DNA from: Eledone cirrhosa
Taxonomy: Eukaryota
NCBI GenBank assembly: GCA_964016885.1
Contig: OZ024762.1
Location: 21,142,001-21,206,000, forward strand
Reading direction: 5' to 3'
Length of the DNA: 64,000 nt
A model generated the notes under the pieces. It saw nothing but the letters and a program-made list of their open reading frames with translations. It made no database searches and had not been told where the DNA came from. Numbering within the stretch: the stretch's first letter is position 1; every line of letters starts with the position of its first letter. Below, piece by piece: positions 1,891-63,287 of the stretch. Both the position numbers and the translations under genes were made by a program.

Positions 1891-1996
1891 TATATACACA
1901 TACATAAATGCATATACACATATACACACATATACACACATATATATATATATCAATAATATTAATAAATGGAAACTATCTTTATAAAACATTATT

Positions 1997-2058
1997 TATT
2001 TTATTATATATATTTCAAGGGTAGCAAAATTTTTGGTACGCTCTCATCAGATAAAATA
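1997..2058 (-). ncRNA. Type-I hammerhead ribozyme motif (mirror at 3014-3067 on +, stem I broken by a SINE)
   Basis: UAUUUUAU-CUGAUGA-GAGCGUACC..GCUACCCUU-GAAA-UAUAUA-UA-AUAAAAUA. Confidence 0.7.
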
Positions 2059-2356
2059 CAAAAGTTGTTTTATAGATAGTGACATATCCAAAAACAAGAA
2101 CTTATTGTTTTAAGTTCTGTTTGAATAGTGAAAGAAATTCAAATGCTAGGATGAAAATGTTAATGAGGATAACGTAAAGTTGAAAAAGATTGTTATATTT
2201 AGACGCTAGATAAATTTAAATAATTATTAGTGTTATTTTTTAAGGGAAGAAGAGAGAGGTTAATATTAATATTAGGGTGTAAGAAAATTTAAGGAAAGAA
2301 TATAAGAAAAAGTATATTATAGTTAGAAATAGACTATTATTATTAATATATAATTA

Positions 2357-2547
2357 GGGCAGTGGATTGGCAGTATCGGTAGAGGGTCGGACGCCATGCT
2401 TTCCAGCATAGTTACGTTCCTTTGCGGTCTGAGTTCAAATCCCGCCGAGGTGAACTTTGCCTTTCATCCTTACGGGGTCGATAAAATAAAGTACCAGTAA
2501 TGTACTGGGTAATTGATGGCCTTGTGCCAAAAGTAGAAACGATTATT
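2357..2547 (+). mobile_element. tRNA-derived SINE family B (Deu/Nin-like domain); other copies ~3068-3185, 11930-12070, 18490-18675, 27895-28300, 33345-33485, 45560-45927, 47485-47712, 48967-49155, 55555-55740, 60040-60180
   Basis: TGGCAGTATCGG / GAGTTCAAATCC pol III boxes; GCCTTTCATCCTTACGGGGTCGATAAAATAAAGTACC resembles the DeuSINE/Nin domain; (ATT)n tail. Confidence 0.85.
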
Positions 2548-3304
2548 AATATATAATTGTATGGATCATATTAGTGATGGTGTATAGAGAGTGAAATATT
2601 TATTTATTTAATTATATATTTTGGTAGTATTTATAATATAATAAATATAATATGAGAATTATAATTGCGTTGAAGTGGAAGAATATCAAATTTTAAAAAA
2701 TGAGAGATACTACTAATTATTGGGTCTATTCTAATATTATAGAGATAATATTTATAAGTATATTTTATGAAGAATTAGGGTTGTAAGTATATTTTATTTT
2801 ATTTTATATTACAACAGGTTATTTATATAAATAATTTTAGTGTTGTTTTTATAGATAATTTAAATATTTTTTATATGTGAATAGTTACGATGAATTTCTT
2901 GTTTACATTTTCAATATATATTTAAGAAAAAGGAAGTAGTTCTATTTTATTATAGAAGATTATTTTGTACATTCAATATTTTGGATATGTCACTATTTAT
3001 AAAACAACTTTTGTATTTTATCTGATGAGAGCATACCCAAAATTTTGGTACCCTTGAAATATATATAATTGTTTCTACTTTTGGCACAAGGCCAGCAATT
3101 ATCCTAGTGTATTACTGGTACTTTATTGTATCGACCCCGTAAGGATGAAAGGCAAAGTTGACCTCAGCGGGATTTGAACTCGGAAATATGGTTTTATATA
3201 GATAGTTTCCATTTATAAATATTATTGATATTAAGAAAATCTTGTAGAGTGCTTCGAATCTGTTATAAATAAATTTGTTGAATAACCAACAAATTAAATA
3301 ATCC

Positions 3305-4333
3305 TTGGTACAGTTAGGTAGTTAAATAAATTTCGGGTTCAATGAAAAATATTTGCTCACACACGAAAACGTGTATTCACAGTGTGTATGTGTATACATG
3401 CGTCAGTGTGTGTGTGTGTGTTTATATTTTATAATCATAAACTTCGAGCCCTTCATTTATTTAACCACGTTTTAAACAGGGGATTTCCTTTAAATATATT
3501 CCAAAACTTTCCACATTTAAAATATAATGTAGATAAATATAAAGATATGGCTGTTATCTCTAGCATTTGTATCGAACACAAACGGTCGAATATTTTACGC
3601 AACGTAAACAAAGACACACACACACATATACATATATGTACATGATGTTTAATACACACACACACATATATATATATATGTATTATGTATATATTATATG
3701 CATATATAAATATATATATTATATATATATTATATATGTATTATATATATATATTATATGCATATATAAATACATACACACATATACACCACCCCCATAT
3801 ATATATATATATATGTCTAACTTAATAGTACCACCTGACGAAGTTTTTCAAATCAGGATTTGGACACCATGGCTCACTCAAGTAGAAAGTTATTTATTGT
3901 TTACTGAGACATATCCGGGCGTAGAAGGTTTATCCGGAATTCCCCGAAGGAATTTGTCCAAAGACATCTTGAACTTTATGGGATCTGTTCCCGTATTAAA
4001 CATCATGTACATATATGTATATGTGTGTGTTTGTCTTTGTTTACATTGCGTAAAACATTCGACCGTTTGTGGTCGATACAAATGCTAGAGATAACAACTA
4101 TATCTTTATATTTATCTACATAATATTTTAAATGTGAAAAGTTTTGGAATATATTTAAAGGAAATCCCCTATTTAAAACGTGGTTAAATAAATGAGGGGC
4201 TCGAAGTTTATGATTATAAAATATAAACACACACATACTAACGCATGTATAAACACAGTGAATACACGTTTTCGTGTGAGAAAATATCTTTAATTAAATC
4301 CCAAATTTATTTAACTACTTTAATAACTAAGAG
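3305..4333. repeat. ~345-bp inverted repeat pair
   Basis: 3305-3655 vs 3993-4333, also visible as matching ORF-track peptides on opposite strands. Confidence 0.85.
3830..3995 (-). mobile_element. LINE (CR1/L2-like) 3' terminal fragment
   Basis: FKMSLDKFLRGIPDKPSTPGY resembles the FKxxLDxFLxxIPDxP..GY C-terminus of such ORF2s. Confidence 0.55.
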
Positions 4334-4682
4334 ATATCTGTGAAATAAATTTAAAAAGTTTTGAACTTTAATAAAAATTTTTTTAAAAATTCTTTACCCA
4401 TGATGCCACAGTAGCGACATCAGTATCACCAAGTTAGCGACATCAGTTCCTTAAAAGTTTTCAAAGGGAAATCTCAAGAACGATAACTCCGTTTGGCTTT
4501 AATCGCAAAATTGGGTGTAAAAACTTTTTTGTATCTGCAGTGTACACAGGCGAACGTTATCTCGATTCTTCCTTTATGAGCATTCACTCTTAACGTAATT
4601 CTCAGGAAGATTCTGTGTGGCAGATTGTATGACAAAGCTGGCCCCATATATGTATAATATATGTATTATATATATATATATA

Positions 4683-4853
4683 TAATATAAGATCAAAAGA
4701 TGGTTAAAGGAGTTCCATGTATTTTATTATGCGCATTTCCTTTAACCATCTTTTGATCTTATATTATGTATACTCCAGTCCTACAAACTGTAGAGTGCTT
4801 CTTATCCGATATCTGCATTGCTTTATTGTACTACAATAAAACTCACCTCCTAC

Positions 4854-4854
<1 letters not shown>
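4683..4854 (+). mobile_element. Internally deleted copy of fold-back family P2
   Basis: Outer arm ends and tail identical to the reverse complement of 61433-61840; centre missing. Confidence 0.8.
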
Positions 4855-9530: not shown

Positions 9531-9531
<1 letters not shown>

Positions 9532-10020
9532 CGTTCTTTACTATTAGCGGTGTCAAGAATGAAAGTAAATTTATTTTCATTTTCGAACGTCGGAAATTGA
9601 AGGTGGGATTTACCGTCATGATGTTGTGGTGCACGAACGGAACTTTGTAGATCCTGCGGACCCTGATGTGCACACACAGCTCATAGAGAACACATGGAGC
9701 CGTGCAAAGAAGAAGCTTCGTCGCCAGCATGGTACCAGCAGTGCTTTATTCCATACATATATAGCTGAATTTCTTTGGCGGCACAGAGTTGGGGCCAACA
9801 TGTTTGGCGAAATGATAAACTGTATTGCAGCTATTTATATGGTGTAGTAAACATTTAAATAAGATTGGTAATTTAAAATGTTTATATGCAATAAACGTTT
9901 ATTTACTTTCATTATCCGCGAGGTTTCGTTTAAACACACACACACAAAATGTAAATAAACTATCGAAAATGAAAATAAATTTACTTTCATTCTTGACACC
10001 GCTAATAGTAAGGAACGCCC
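9531..10020 (+). mobile_element. Merlin (IS1595/ISXO2-like) DNA transposon deletion derivative
   Basis: 56-bp TIRs (9531-9586 / 9963-10018, 1 mismatch, right end ...CGCCC) enclosing transposase C-terminus VHERNFVDP..VHTQLIENTWSRAKKKLRRQHGT..YIAEFLWRHR. Confidence 0.8.
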
Positions 10021-10154: not shown

Positions 10155-10375
10155 ACGCGGTGACAAGTACCAGCGCTGCTTTAGTTCAATCTTATATTGC
10201 AGAATTTCTTTATCATCTCGCCAAACTTGTTGGCACCAGTTTGGCGAGATGATAAACTGCATTGGAGCAATTTATATGGTGCAATAAACGTTTCAATATG
10301 TTATTTTTTTGTTTCAACACACACAAAATGAAAATAAATACGCGAAAATAAAAATAAATTTCATTTCCGACGTGA
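10155..10375 (+). mobile_element. Second degenerate Merlin transposase 3' fragment
   Basis: Similar to 9730-9980 (FGEMINCIxAIYMV shared). Confidence 0.65.
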
Positions 10376-10390
10376 AACTTAAGGTTTATC

Positions 10391-10584: not shown

Positions 10585-11018
10585 TATATTAATAAGAGGA
10601 ATTCTAACTTTGTCTGATTTACTCGTTTTATTTACAATCCTTTAAAATATATATAATATGGTATTATAATGAAATAGTATGATAGAATATTAAATTCTAA
10701 GTGTTAATTGAACAAGTACTTTCATGCTTTCGCAATCTTCAGGTTCATGATATGTGGTGACAGTCGAGTTTGCAATTTTCAACTGCAAACTGCAAAAAAT
10801 TGCAAACTCGACTGTCACCACATATCATGAACCTGAAGATTGCGAAAGCATGAAAGTACTTGTTCAATTAACACTTAGAATTTAATATTCTATCATACTA
10901 TTTCATTATAATACCATATTATATATATTTTAAAGGATTGTAAATAAAACGAGTAAATCAGACAAAGTTGGAATTCCTCTTATTAATATAATCTTCTATA
11001 CACAATCATACACACCCG
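10585..11018 (+). mobile_element. Fold-back element family P1 (195-bp arms, 16-nt loop, one-sided tail), Penelope-like
   Basis: Near-perfect palindrome 10585-10779 / 10796-10990 with a hammerhead motif in each arm; second copy at 62550-62959. Confidence 0.8.
10828..10866 (+). ncRNA. Minimal type-I hammerhead ribozyme motif (mirror copy 10709-10747 on -)
   Basis: UGAAC-CUGAAGA-U UGC GAAA GCA U-GAAA-GUAC-UU-GUUCA: stem I 5 bp, GNRA-capped stem II, palindromic AGUACU stem III. Confidence 0.7.
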
Positions 11019-11042
11019 TGTATATTTACCTATCTATATCTA

Positions 11043-15142: not shown

Positions 15143-16413
15143 TCAACGTTTAACGTCCGTGTTCCACGCTTGCATGGGTTTGGACGGGGGTAGTCCCACT
15201 TGAGGCAAGAGTGATTGTCTTGCTCGCATAGGACTGTCTGGCAGGTTTTCTACAGTTGGATGCCCTTCCTAACACCAACCACATTTACAGTGTGGGTCTG
15301 GGAGGTTTTTACCGTGTTGCCTACACGGCCACATTACAGCGTGGACTGTGTGTTTTTTTGTCGTGACACCTACACGATCTCATTTGTTTCGGCCTGGATG
15401 GCGCGGCACCAACATAACTTTACATAGAACGGGGTGGTGTGGATAGGGTGGGGGTGGTGGCGGGACGGGGTGTAGTTTGTTAGAGATGCCTACTGGCAAG
15501 GCGGGTCTTCTCTGTTACTGAGTACCGCCAAAGGTCACGGTCCAGTGACATTGTCTTGGAGAGGTGTAAGTGTGTGAGGTCGGAGTTTATCAGCTCATCC
15601 CATGTTTTTCTAGGTCTGCCTATTCCGTGGCTACCGTCTATCTTTATTGCCCTGCACTTTGTAATACAGCTATCGACTTTCATGCGCATCACGTGTCCAT
15701 ACCAACGCAGCCTTCTCTCGAGTAAACAACATCTGATCCCTCTTATCTCTAATTTTTTCCTTAGTTCGTTTATGCTTTGCCGTTCACGTATATTACTGTT
15801 ACACATCCAGCGGAGCATGCAAGCTTCGTTCCTCTCTAGTCTGCGTATATCCTCTGCACACAATGCCCAGGTCTCACTACCATGCAACATTGCTGTTCGT
15901 ATGCAGGCATCGTACAACCTGCCTTTCATTTTTAGGGAGAACCCTTTAGCAGCTAATAGTGGTATAAGCTCTCTGAACTTTTTCCAACCAGTTCTGACTC
16001 TAGCTACAGTACTTTCAGAGCACCCTCCCCCACTGCTGATTTTATCGCCCAGGTAACGGAAGCTGTCCACTATTTCTATAGAACTCTCTGCGCAATTGAA
16101 AGAGCTAGTATTTTGTGGGCACTTGCTGCTACTTATTGCACCAGAACACCGGCCACATGTAAAGTCTATGTTCTTAGTTAGCTTACCTGTGATCCCACTA
16201 CATCTTTTATGCACCCATACTTTGCATTTAGGACATAAGATGGAGTTTCTACCTACGCCTTTCCTACATACCGAGCACGACCATTTCCCAGAAGGGACCG
16301 CCGCCTTGTTTTCTTTCCTACAAACTAGTACTTTGGTCTTAGCCAGGTTAATTTTAAGTCCTTTTGACTCTAGGCCGTGCTTCCATGTTTGGAATTTCTT
16401 CTCTAGCTCGGCC

Positions 16414-16415
<2 letters not shown>
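15140..16415 (-). mobile_element. Second, shorter copy of the same RTE LINE
   Basis: Near-identical to ~40910-42182 (311-aa ORF differs at ~1 residue); flanked by (TA)n. Confidence 0.93.
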
Positions 16416-16455
<40 letters not shown>

Positions 16456-17720: not shown

Positions 17721-57607
<39,887 letters not shown>

Positions 57608-60530: not shown

Positions 60531-61432
60531 GTGGTGAGTGGCACGAATTATTTTTCATTTCCTTAATATCGATCTCTATTGTCAAATATACACCAATATT
60601 ATGTTAAAGGCACGTGGCTGAGTGGTTAGAAAATTGGGTTCGCAATGGTGAGGTTGGGAGTGCGATTCCCGGACTGGGCAATGTGTTATGTCCTTGAGCA
60701 AGCCACTTTATTTCACGTTGCTATTTCTGTCTGGATTTCTGACAGGTAGATAGTATTACCAATTGGAAAGACCAATGGAAACATTGTTTCCTCGGTCCAA
60801 TTTGAGGAGCTCCAACCCTTTAGCATCTACATTTCTTTATATATACAATTGTATTTTTGTGAGATAATATCGAATCTATGAAATTTTGATATTTATTTCG
60901 AGAACAATACCTTAACAGCAGTATGAGTGGCCGGTTACGGCCAGTTTGAACAGAAAGAGGTGAAAGAATTCTGGCTGGATACAACCGGTTTAAATGCTAA
61001 AGGGTTAAGTGAATAAGGTCTGGGATCGTGTCGATCAACTGTTATATTATGTTTAGAACCCAACTCCCTGTTGCTAGTTCATCCTTGTATTATCCCCTAA
61101 TGTCTTGGGCCCATTTGACTAATAAAAAATACACCTTTATTAGGTTTAGATCCCCAACTCTTTGTTGTTTTGTCGTCCTTGTATTATCCATAATGTCTTG
61201 GGCTCTTGTGATCAATAAAAGATAAGCCATTATATTGTTTAACTCCCAACCAAATACAGCTACTTTAAACTTCGAACTGACAATCTGACTGGTATCAAAA
61301 TTACAATTACGCTGTTAAAATACACCCACACCCAAACATCCACCCCCACACTCATCCACACACATATATATGATAGTCATTGATAGTAGAATCGTATACA
61401 ATCATATGTATGTATATATATATATATATATA

Positions 61433-61833
61433 TGTAGGAGGTGAGTTTTATTGTAGTACAATAAAGCAATGCAGATATCGGATAAGAAGCACTCTACAGT
61501 TTGTAGGACTGGAGTATACATAATATAAGATCAAAAGATGGTTAAAGGAGTTCCATGTATTTTATTATGCGCATTTCAAAAACAAACATCATCATGCAAT
61601 AATATTTGTGTTTTCATCAGATAAAACAGGAGAACATGATATGAAGGCTAAAAAACACTTGTGGATAGTGCAGTTTTAAATCAACATATGCACTATCCAC
61701 AAGTGTTTTTTAGCCTTCATATCATGTTCTCCTGTTTTATCTGATGAAAACACAAATATTATTGCATGATGATGTTTGTTTTTGAAATGCGCATAATAAA
61801 ATACATGGAACTCCTTTAACCATCTTTTGATCT

Positions 61834-61840
<7 letters not shown>
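61433..61840 (-). mobile_element. Fold-back element family P2 (152-bp perfect arms, 16-nt loop, ~88-bp one-sided tail)
   Basis: 61521-61672 / 61689-61840 are reverse complements; flanked by (TA)n; internally deleted copy at 4683-4854. Confidence 0.8.
61733..61803 (+). ncRNA. Type-I hammerhead ribozyme motif (mirror copy 61558-61628 on -)
   Basis: UGUUUUAU-CUGAUGA-AAACACAAAUA..UGUUUGUUUUU-GAAA-UGCGCA-UA-AUAAAAUA; palindromic stem III. Confidence 0.78.
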
Positions 61841-61885
<45 letters not shown>

Positions 61886-61932
61886 TATTTAATTATACAA
61901 GAAATAACACACTATAATTACGTCCAGTACGC

Positions 61933-61998
61933 TCATCTGATGAGCGTACTGGACGTTTCTGTTAGAATCGTCTAGTTTCCTGAAACCTTTGGTAATGA
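61933..61998 (+). ncRNA. Imperfect type-I hammerhead motif inside a partly deleted fold-back (family P4, ~61885-62033)
   Basis: UCAU-CUGAUGA-long stem II (ACUGGACG/CGUCUAGU)-GAAA-CC UUU GG-UA-AUGA; base of stem II mismatched. Confidence 0.5.
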
Positions 61999-62549
61999 AA
62001 TAATTATATTGTGTTGTTTATTATGTAATTAAATTGCTCTGTACTATATATAGAGCACTCTTCTTTCCTCTACCTGTACACACACACATATATATATCGA
62101 AATAAGAGTGGTATATCATAAGAAAAGAGAAGGAACTATGATATAAAATGTTAGATGCCTTAGACAAAGCGAAGTGTGCTCAATGCTTAAAGATGCAAAA
62201 TTAAATATTATACTGGAGTTAATATTTAAGGAGAATTTGTGTACAGGATAAGCAGAACGGGTATATGCAGAAATATATATATATATATATCGAGTACTCT
62301 GGTGCGTTATGGTCCACCTGGTTCCTTACCACACTTCCTTCGTTATATATATATATTTGGTGAGGGCGCGTGGCTAAGTGTTTAGAGAATTGGATTCTCA
62401 ATTGTGAGGTTATGTCTTTATTTCACGTTGCTCCTTCTACCTAGAGTTGCGACCGATAGATAGTATTAGCAATTGGAAAGACAAATGGAAGCATTGTTTC
62501 CTCGGTTCGATTTGACCAAAGTCGTTCGACTGTTATATATATATATATA

Positions 62550-62959
62550 TATATTAATAAGAGGAATTCCAACTTTGTCTGATTTACTCGTTTTATTTAC
62601 AATCCTTTAAAATTTATAATGGTATTATAATGAAATAGTATGATAGAATATTAAATGTTAAGTGTTAATTGAACAAGTACTTTCATGCTTTCGCAATCTT
62701 CAGGTTCATAATATGCGGTGACAGTCAAGTTTGCAATTTTCAACTGTTGAAAATTGCAAACTTGACTGTCACCACACATTATGAACCTGAAGATTGCGAA
62801 AGCATGAAAGTACTTGTTCAATTAACACTTAACATTCTATCATACTATTTCATTATACCATTATAAATGTTAAAGGATTATAAATAAAACGAGTAAATCA
62901 GACAAAGTTGGAATTCCTCTTATTAATATAATCTTCTATACACAAACATACACACCCGT
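62550..62959 (+). mobile_element. Fold-back element family P1, second copy (1-nt loop at 62745)
   Basis: Same arms and tail as 10585-11018. Confidence 0.8.
62782..62820 (+). ncRNA. Minimal type-I hammerhead motif (mirror copy 62670-62708 on -)
   Basis: Identical to 10828-10866. Confidence 0.7.
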
Positions 62960-63287
62960 CTCACACTCTCTCTCTCTCTCTCACTCTCTCACTCTCTATA
63001 CACACACACACACAGAGGGAGGTGTAAGGCGAAGTTACGGTAGGTTCACCCAGGTGAGCACTCGATGTTTAGGTTCATGTCAGTGGCGAGGTGTAGAGCT
63101 AGACAGAGTGTAATGCACGGACGATTTAGTAAACCTTCATATCGTTTATTGATTGGTGACGCGAGTTTCGCTATTGATCAGCTCAAGGTTCGATCTGTAT
63201 CGATCTGGCCCGACTCTGGAATCAAAAGCTCGTCGGACCTTGTTATATCTGTTTATCTTTCACACACACACACACACACGCACACGC

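Follow-up and report, generated by a model that had tools for sequence, protein, structure and literature searches.

A palindrome with two hammerhead motifs in Eledone cirrhosa: a probable truncated insertion of a Penelope-like element

Introduction

What is a palindrome that carries a hammerhead motif in each arm and lies some kilobases upstream of POLQ in an octopod genome, how could it have formed, and are its ribozymes likely to act where they are? We addressed these questions computationally for such a palindrome, hereafter P2, in a 64,000-nucleotide stretch of Eledone cirrhosa DNA (assembly GCA_964016885.1, contig OZ024762.1, positions 21,142,001 to 21,206,000 of the forward strand), which is referred to as the window and whose first letter is position 1 in all coordinates below. 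P2 is, very probably, a recent and heavily 5'-truncated insertion of a hammerhead-bearing Penelope-like element (PLE), of which only the 3' pLTR region is present.

Results

Structure of the palindrome and its flanks

The sequence-only reading of this DNA had described perfect arms of 152 bp, a tail of ~88 bp on one side and (TA)n on both sides. The arms are indeed perfectly complementary and the tail is indeed confined to one side, but the lengths had to be corrected to 153 bp (153 consecutive complementary pairs between 61520–61672 and 61689–61841, 0 mismatches, the outermost bases also fitting the (TA)n flank) and to 86 nt (61434–61519). The flanks are as described: the alternating-AT run is 21 nt long on the left side and 39 nt long on the right. 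The two further fold-backs assigned to the same cluster, at 61.9 kb and 62.55–62.93 kb, are both real. The 16-nt spacer at the centre (61673–61688) is not self-complementary and shows no inward pairing; by analogy with a sibling copy described below, whose spacer is element sequence, we infer that it represents element sequence reached by only one of two cDNAs. The tail ends in an 8-bp hairpin (61447–61465) and an A/C-rich stretch. The parts of the locus are as follows.

61413–61433, no strand: (TA)n target tract on the tail side, a 21-nt alternating AT run
61434–61519, minus strand: one-sided 86-nt tail, the 3' end of the element (identical in the sibling at 4768–4853; computed fold)
61486–61498, minus strand: 13-nt tail motif, common to the tail of a related family at 2–3 kb
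61520–61672, minus strand: tail-bearing arm (pLTR fragment), sense on the minus strand (arm pairing)
61558–61628, minus strand: type I hammerhead in the tail-bearing arm, core from 61620, predicted cut after 61566
61673–61688, no strand: 16-nt spacer
61689–61841, plus strand: tail-less arm (inverted pLTR fragment), sense on the plus strand (arm pairing)
61733–61803, plus strand: type I hammerhead in the tail-less arm, predicted cut after 61795 (motif scan, folding)
61842–61880, no strand: (TA)n target tract common to P2 and the 61.9-kb fold-back, a 39-nt alternating AT run

Repeated insertion at (TA)n tracts accounts for the local clustering of fold-backs, one tract being joint to P2 and the 61.9-kb element. 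Because the target is a microsatellite, a target-site duplication of P2 is unreadable.

The hammerhead motifs

The core reported for both arms is present (CUGAUGA at 61741 on the plus strand and at 61620 on the minus strand, plus GAAA), and the two motifs read outward, away from the centre, on opposite strands. P2 thus contains a three-helix type I core (CUGANGA / GAAA / NUH) in which helix III is complete only as a dimer. The details given by the sequence-only reading were also borne out: stem I has 8 bp, one G-U among them, the long stem II is a 36-nt region made of 3 bp, a C.U mismatch, 12 bp and a tetraloop, stem III is AUGCGCAU, an 8-nt palindrome, the triplet is AUA, and the predicted cut after 61795 on the plus strand is supported, with a mirror site at 61566 on the minus strand. 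Their description as the best-formed hammerheads of the window holds for stem length only, given an A-U pair at 10.1–11.1, a stem III that stays open in the monomer and the lack of an Rfam match. The A-U at 10.1–11.1, in hammerhead numbering, stands in place of the usual G-C. At gathering score the Rfam hammerhead gave 0 matches in 64 kb, and at E up to 10 the interval 61300–63100 gave 46 Rfam matches, none of them a hammerhead; those to miRNA families at P2 were all below gathering scores and were set aside as reflecting the hairpin only. A descriptor with a palindromic stem III had 7 matches across the window but none in any of 200 dinucleotide shuffles, a lenient test since the descriptor was fixed after the hits had been seen, and the isolated P2 motif folded no better than shuffles (z = −1.23, 24/200 shuffles).

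In folding calculations stem III could not close in a monomer (forcing two pairs carried a penalty of ~3 kcal/mol), and two isolated motifs were predicted to co-fold via the 8-bp palindrome at −43.9 kcal/mol vs 2 x −15.9 kcal/mol. The earlier call for tests of the dimer is well founded; the palindrome needs a second RNA. The three hammerhead families found in the window have three different perfect palindromes as stem III, as expected for dimer-dependent PLE hammerheads. According to the available portion of PMC4209133, PLE hammerheads with a palindromic helix III work as dimers and cleave weakly in vitro, and in that of PMC11167929 cleavage of a PLE hammerhead occurred only with protein. The best explanation of the P2 hammerhead is that it is cargo of the parent element and of the dimer-dependent type, whose stem III would form only between two copies.

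A sibling copy and related families

Self-BLAST of the window detected a second copy of the P2 family, and head-to-head arms with a fixed outer end, a one-sided tail and an AT-repeat flank were found at 5 loci belonging to 3 hammerhead families. Besides P2 these are the following.

4682–4854, plus strand: sibling of P2, both arms matching P2 exactly, (TA)n on both sides
1951–3311 (right end approximate), no strand: related family, an older insertion with two hammerhead arms set head to head and a tail
62550–62959, with a second copy at 10585–11019, no strand: third family, head-to-head arms and a tail of ~29 nt

The sibling consists of a tail-less arm of 58 nt (4682–4739, sense on the minus strand) and a tail arm of 117 nt (4738–4854, sense on the plus strand), which overlap by 2 nt at the junction. 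Lying 57 kb from P2, it is identical to it at 145/145 shared nt; its two outer ends are those of P2, but its centre is not. The 86-nt tail is identical at 2/2 loci, and alternating-AT runs of 13–39 nt are present at 4/4 flanks of the family. These ends and this identity indicate that the unit is mobile and young, that its two 3' ends are fixed and lie 86 nt from each other, and that the centre is a variable truncation point. With an identical sibling 57 kb away, the recent insertion suggested earlier for P2 is probable.

At the older 2–3 kb locus, whose hammerhead resembles that of P2, the arms occupy 1951–2093 (minus strand) and 2979–3231 (plus strand), the latter split by an insert which we take to be a SINE, and a tail of ~80 nt starts at 3232. 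The 13-nt tail motif occurs 3 times in 64 kb (3243, 4789 and 61486), always in tails, and the similarity of the P2 tail to the 2–3 kb tail was reached by 2/5000 shuffles in local score and 7/5000 in global score. Between the arms, 2094–2978 is an AT-rich interior with a SINE at ~2336–2552, in which no protein trace was found; it is probably upstream element sequence.

The third-family hammerhead is minimal: its palindromic stem III is 6 nt long, and its stem II has a U.U at the base. Both copies turn within ~16 nt of the same point, beside a short natural inverted repeat, and this common turning point may be the 5' end of the RNA. A fourth hammerhead-like fold-back at 61887–62034 turns inside the core in an 18-bp perfect hairpin with a 1-nt loop; its outer arms are 85% alike, 44 nt are missing from one arm, and its stem III could close as a monomer in the predicted fold (3 bp + 3-nt loop).

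Several other inverted repeats were observed in the window. The older fold-back at 271–1095 has arms ~75% alike and a third inverted copy that ends at a (TA)n tract, a PLE-like layout in which the hammerhead scans picked up no motif. At 9531–10018, 56-bp terminal inverted repeats (98%) surround a transposase-like fragment, presumably an ISXO2/Merlin-type look-alike, with a partial relative near 10200–10380, and at 3318–4318, inverted arms of 338 bp (90%) surround TA-rich repeats and an apparent 3' end of what we take to be a LINE.

Assignment to Penelope-like elements

No parent RT/endonuclease ORF is present in the window, so that P2 was assigned to the PLEs by its architecture. P2 has a hammerhead in a terminal repeat and an AT-rich, microsatellite target, and its family shows a head-to-head inverted 5'-truncated copy, variable truncation and a fixed tail on one end. 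As far as the available portions of the publications go, PLE insertions comprise a 5'-truncated copy in inverted orientation with a tail at one of the ends, show a (TA)n bias and have a hammerhead in the pLTR (PMC8557442), the head-to-head orientation is the most frequent one (PMC3846280), and opposite-strand hammerhead pairs 100–700 bp apart had already been noted and ascribed to truncated PLEs (PMC4209133). The match to this published layout of 5'-truncated insertions supports the sequence-only view of P2 as a hammerhead-bearing, PLE-derived fold-back. The tail lengths given in those portions are 30–40 bp (PMC8557442, PMC11167929, PMC3846280), and the 86-nt tail of P2 falls outside this range, being 2–3 times longer.

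A regex scan of the six frames of the window for PLE protein motifs gave none that was convincing (7 chance-like matches), and Pfam searches with the six frames of the 2553–2978 interior and the P2 tail peptide returned 0 families in 7/7. The 2–3 kb interior was thus rejected as the end of a PLE ORF (no Pfam match in 6/6 frames, no convincing regex motif). On the minus strand of 61432–61521, an ATG stands exactly at the arm/tail border and is followed by 30 open codons to the end of the element. Taking this tail ORF as the N-terminus of the parent is unsupported, as it has no Pfam family and the tail of the related family is closed in that frame; the 30 codons gave one weak repeat-type match (E 3.4e-4, six repeated stretches). 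The long ORFs at 41247–43379 and 15480–16454, which resemble LINE-type RT, have no sequence in common with P2 and were discarded as its source. Three short P2 motifs gave 0 matches in the available supplement text of PMC8557442, where line breaks or non-text files may hide one. A sigma-70 promoter scan gave chance-level counts, which are not meaningful for animal DNA.

Among known systems, EN+ hammerhead PLEs of the Penelope/Poseidon, Neptune, Nematis and Hydra clades resemble P2, in the accessible text, in the head-to-head 5'-truncated copy, the tail on one end and the hammerhead in the repeat, but differ from it in a tail of 30–40 bp instead of 86 nt and in that P2 has no ORF (PMC8557442, PMC3846280). 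A (TA)n target as in P2 is reported there for Hydra and Naiad and, via a linker hypothesis, for Neptune (PMC8557442, PMC3846280). Poseidon_Ac (PAc) from Anolis carolinensis, as described in the available part of PMC11167929, shares with P2 two fixed 3' ends downstream of the hammerhead, an AT-rich target, an A/C-rich stem-loop near the end and an uncut RNA template, whereas its ORF starts within the hammerhead (no ORF start is confirmed in P2) and its start sites are 30–40 apart rather than 86 nt. The PLE hammerhead variants with a small palindromic helix III in the accessible part of PMC4209133 are likewise type I with a long helix II, need a dimer and occur as opposite-strand pairs 100–700 bp apart; compared with these, P2 has A-U (not G-C) at 10.1–11.1, no extra base after position 9, an 8-bp stem I and an 8-nt palindrome. 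Octopus Naiads (Naiad_Obim, Naiad_Ovul) also combine an octopod host, a (TA)n preference and an inverted layout with a tail, but are described, in the portion of PMC8557442 available, as free of canonical hammerheads and long inactive in cephalopods, whereas P2 has a full core and is young. The full core led us to reject P2 as a Naiad. The departures from print are small: the 86-nt tail, its length and 13-nt motif being common with the related family, and the junction evidence for two-strand priming.

Position relative to POLQ

P2 had been placed ~2 kb upstream of the POLQ 5' exon. POLQ lies on the minus strand from its ATG at 57607 to about 17724, which puts the ATG 3.8 kb away; the figure of ~2 kb fits only a putative 5'-UTR exon, possibly near 59.2–59.4 kb. 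Identity to POLQ of Octopus bimaculoides and O. sinensis is 48–49% for the large exon at 30.5–33.3 kb and about 60–98% for most other exons. No link between P2 and POLQ emerged, P2 being intergenic and its sibling lying 13 kb beyond the stop codon.

POLQ introns hold other repeats. An inverted partial copy of a POLQ helicase exon (residues 487–521) occurs at 29726–29830 on the plus strand, with 86% identity to the O. bimaculoides protein, and an 800-bp imperfect palindrome (81%) at 50998–51796 is made of common repeats. Near-identical RT copies of what we take to be LINE type, with a PHD-like finger, are found in the downstream flank (15480–16454) and in an intron (41247–43379; Pfam RVT_1 and PHD).

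Predicted fate of the ribozymes at this locus

As the motifs occupy opposite strands, transcription through both arms would yield an RNA that contains one hammerhead together with its full antisense. Such a transcript was predicted to reach −269 kcal/mol as a hairpin vs −167 kcal/mol with the hammerhead forced, so that the read-through hairpin would bury the ribozyme by about 100 kcal/mol, and the computed stem I probability in it was ~1e-64. Stem I had a computed probability of 0.7–0.9 in the isolated motif and of 0.02–0.12 in a single arm with its natural flanks (at least 40 nt of context), a predicted misfold. Owing to hairpin burial and misfolding of the single arm, no cleavage is expected from this locus. 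Any transcript that spans both arms would form one long double-stranded RNA, in which the P2 hammerhead should be silent according to these predictions. Escape from the hairpin is conceivable only for an RNA that begins close to the centre, and cleavage at the locus is unlikely. The importance that had been implied for the ribozymes here is thus not supported, given the opposite strands and the 153-bp hairpin in crossing transcripts.

Discussion

Alternative origins of the palindrome

P2 could in principle be a non-autonomous, MITE-like fold-back DNA transposon, bounded by long inverted repeats at its termini and inserted at a TA target. Its long inverted repeats between TA runs, small size and lack of an ORF suit this origin, but arm length and centre vary between copies (153/153 vs 58/30 nt), the 86-nt tail travels unchanged outside the inverted repeat, so that the terminal repeats are not the fixed ones of such a transposon, and hammerheads with a family-specific palindromic stem III are present; we regard it as extremely unlikely. 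Perfect arms would likewise arise in assembly or amplification from a fold-back chimeric read, and assemblies are known to have difficulty with inverted PLE structures (PMC8557442). Against such an artefact, which we consider barely credible, stand a second, independent locus that shares the outer ends but not the junction, older fold-backs of the same layout with diverged arms, and P2 flanks that are not mirrored. The type I hammerhead with a weak palindromic helix III also recalls the small, non-coding non-LTR retrozymes of animals, whose tandem hammerhead repeats make circular RNA (PMC7229834, available portion) and for which an origin from PLE pLTRs is reported (bioRxiv 10.64898/2026.07.22.740005). 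Retrozymes form direct tandem arrays in the portion of PMC7229834 available, whereas the pair in P2 is inverted; the window contains no copy of the unit in direct tandem, and with motifs on opposite strands no unit-length RNA can be excised, which makes a retrozyme very unlikely. Recruitment of a working ribozyme or hairpin switch for POLQ regulation would fit the position of P2 upstream of this gene, and dsRNA accessible to editing or to small-RNA processing could result from an upstream transcript that is divergent or long. The 3.8 kb to the ATG, the predicted burial of the ribozyme, the youth of P2, which leaves no room for conservation, its identical sibling at an unrelated intergenic position and the frequency of such insertions here (5 loci in 64 kb) make recruitment highly improbable.

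How the palindrome may have formed

For the truncated PLE insertion that we prefer, published PLE biochemistry suggests that an RT/GIY-YIG protein from a full-length copy elsewhere would have cut both strands of the (TA)n tract. With each 3' end as a primer, reverse transcription would then have begun at either of two positions in the element RNA, which correspond to the fixed ends 86 nt apart; two such start sites would account for a tail on one end and none on the other, the tail arm being the putative cDNA from the far site and the tail-less arm that from the near site. Copying ran through the ribozyme cut site, and the RNA template was consequently uncut or re-ligated: 9/10 arms at the five loci extend 5' of this site and 0 begin at it, showing that cleavage did not define the template. 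Both cDNAs would finally have stopped early, as the variable centres suggest, and become linked head to head, microhomology being slight or absent, and the spacer of P2 would be the length difference between them. On AT-rich DNA in vitro, PAc cleaves the two strands and extends each of them, its tail is bounded by two internal RT start sites, and uncut RNA is its dominant substrate (PMC11167929, in the portion available).

A palindrome could also be produced from a PLE by fold-back self-priming of one strand, as the accessible part of PMC3846280 proposes for rotifer PLEs. Similarity tends to be higher between the two arms of one locus than between loci (193/194 identical at 10.6 kb vs 172–184 matches between loci), although this is equally expected if one source element gave both cDNAs, and the turning point of the 61.9-kb element falls within a short natural palindrome. 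If a tail-primed cDNA had folded back, however, the loop should be continuous with the tail arm, whereas the loop of the sibling is continuous with the tail-less arm, which extends upstream beyond the tail arm by 28 nt. Both third-family copies lean to the tail-less arm too, with the same polarity in a weaker form (one by only 1–2 nt). Junction polarity was readable at 3/5 loci, the sibling and these two copies, P2 and the 2–3 kb locus giving no reading, and a tail-less arm that reaches further upstream favours two primings, from few loci. Taken together, we lean towards two-strand priming over fold-back self-priming and hold the latter to be rather unlikely.

As an extension of two-strand priming, which we offer as a clearly speculative and improbable one, the stem III palindrome might be an RNA dimerisation signal more than a catalytic part, pairing two RNAs in trans for a dimeric RT-endonuclease that would prime both strands at once; P2 and the 2–3 kb family might then form a long-tail octopod PLE lineage in which the 13-nt motif is the recognition site of the protein. 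The three different perfect palindromes in three families, the uncut templates and the junction polarity fit this idea, as does the dimer predicted for the PAc protein (PMC11167929, available portion). Naiads, however, arrive at these inverted structures although they lack canonical hammerheads, and a single source RNA, if copied two times, would give the same picture. No such model was found in a literature search that had most subscription journals and Repbase outside its coverage.

Implications

The P2 locus itself matters little, given five such stubs in 64 kb. Its value is as evidence for recent activity of a hammerhead-bearing PLE family in an octopod. The long tail with its conserved 13-nt motif is a candidate RT recognition site, and stubs of the P2 type are natural insertion products that bear on the formation of the head-to-head and tail structures and on the role of the hammerhead in PLEs.
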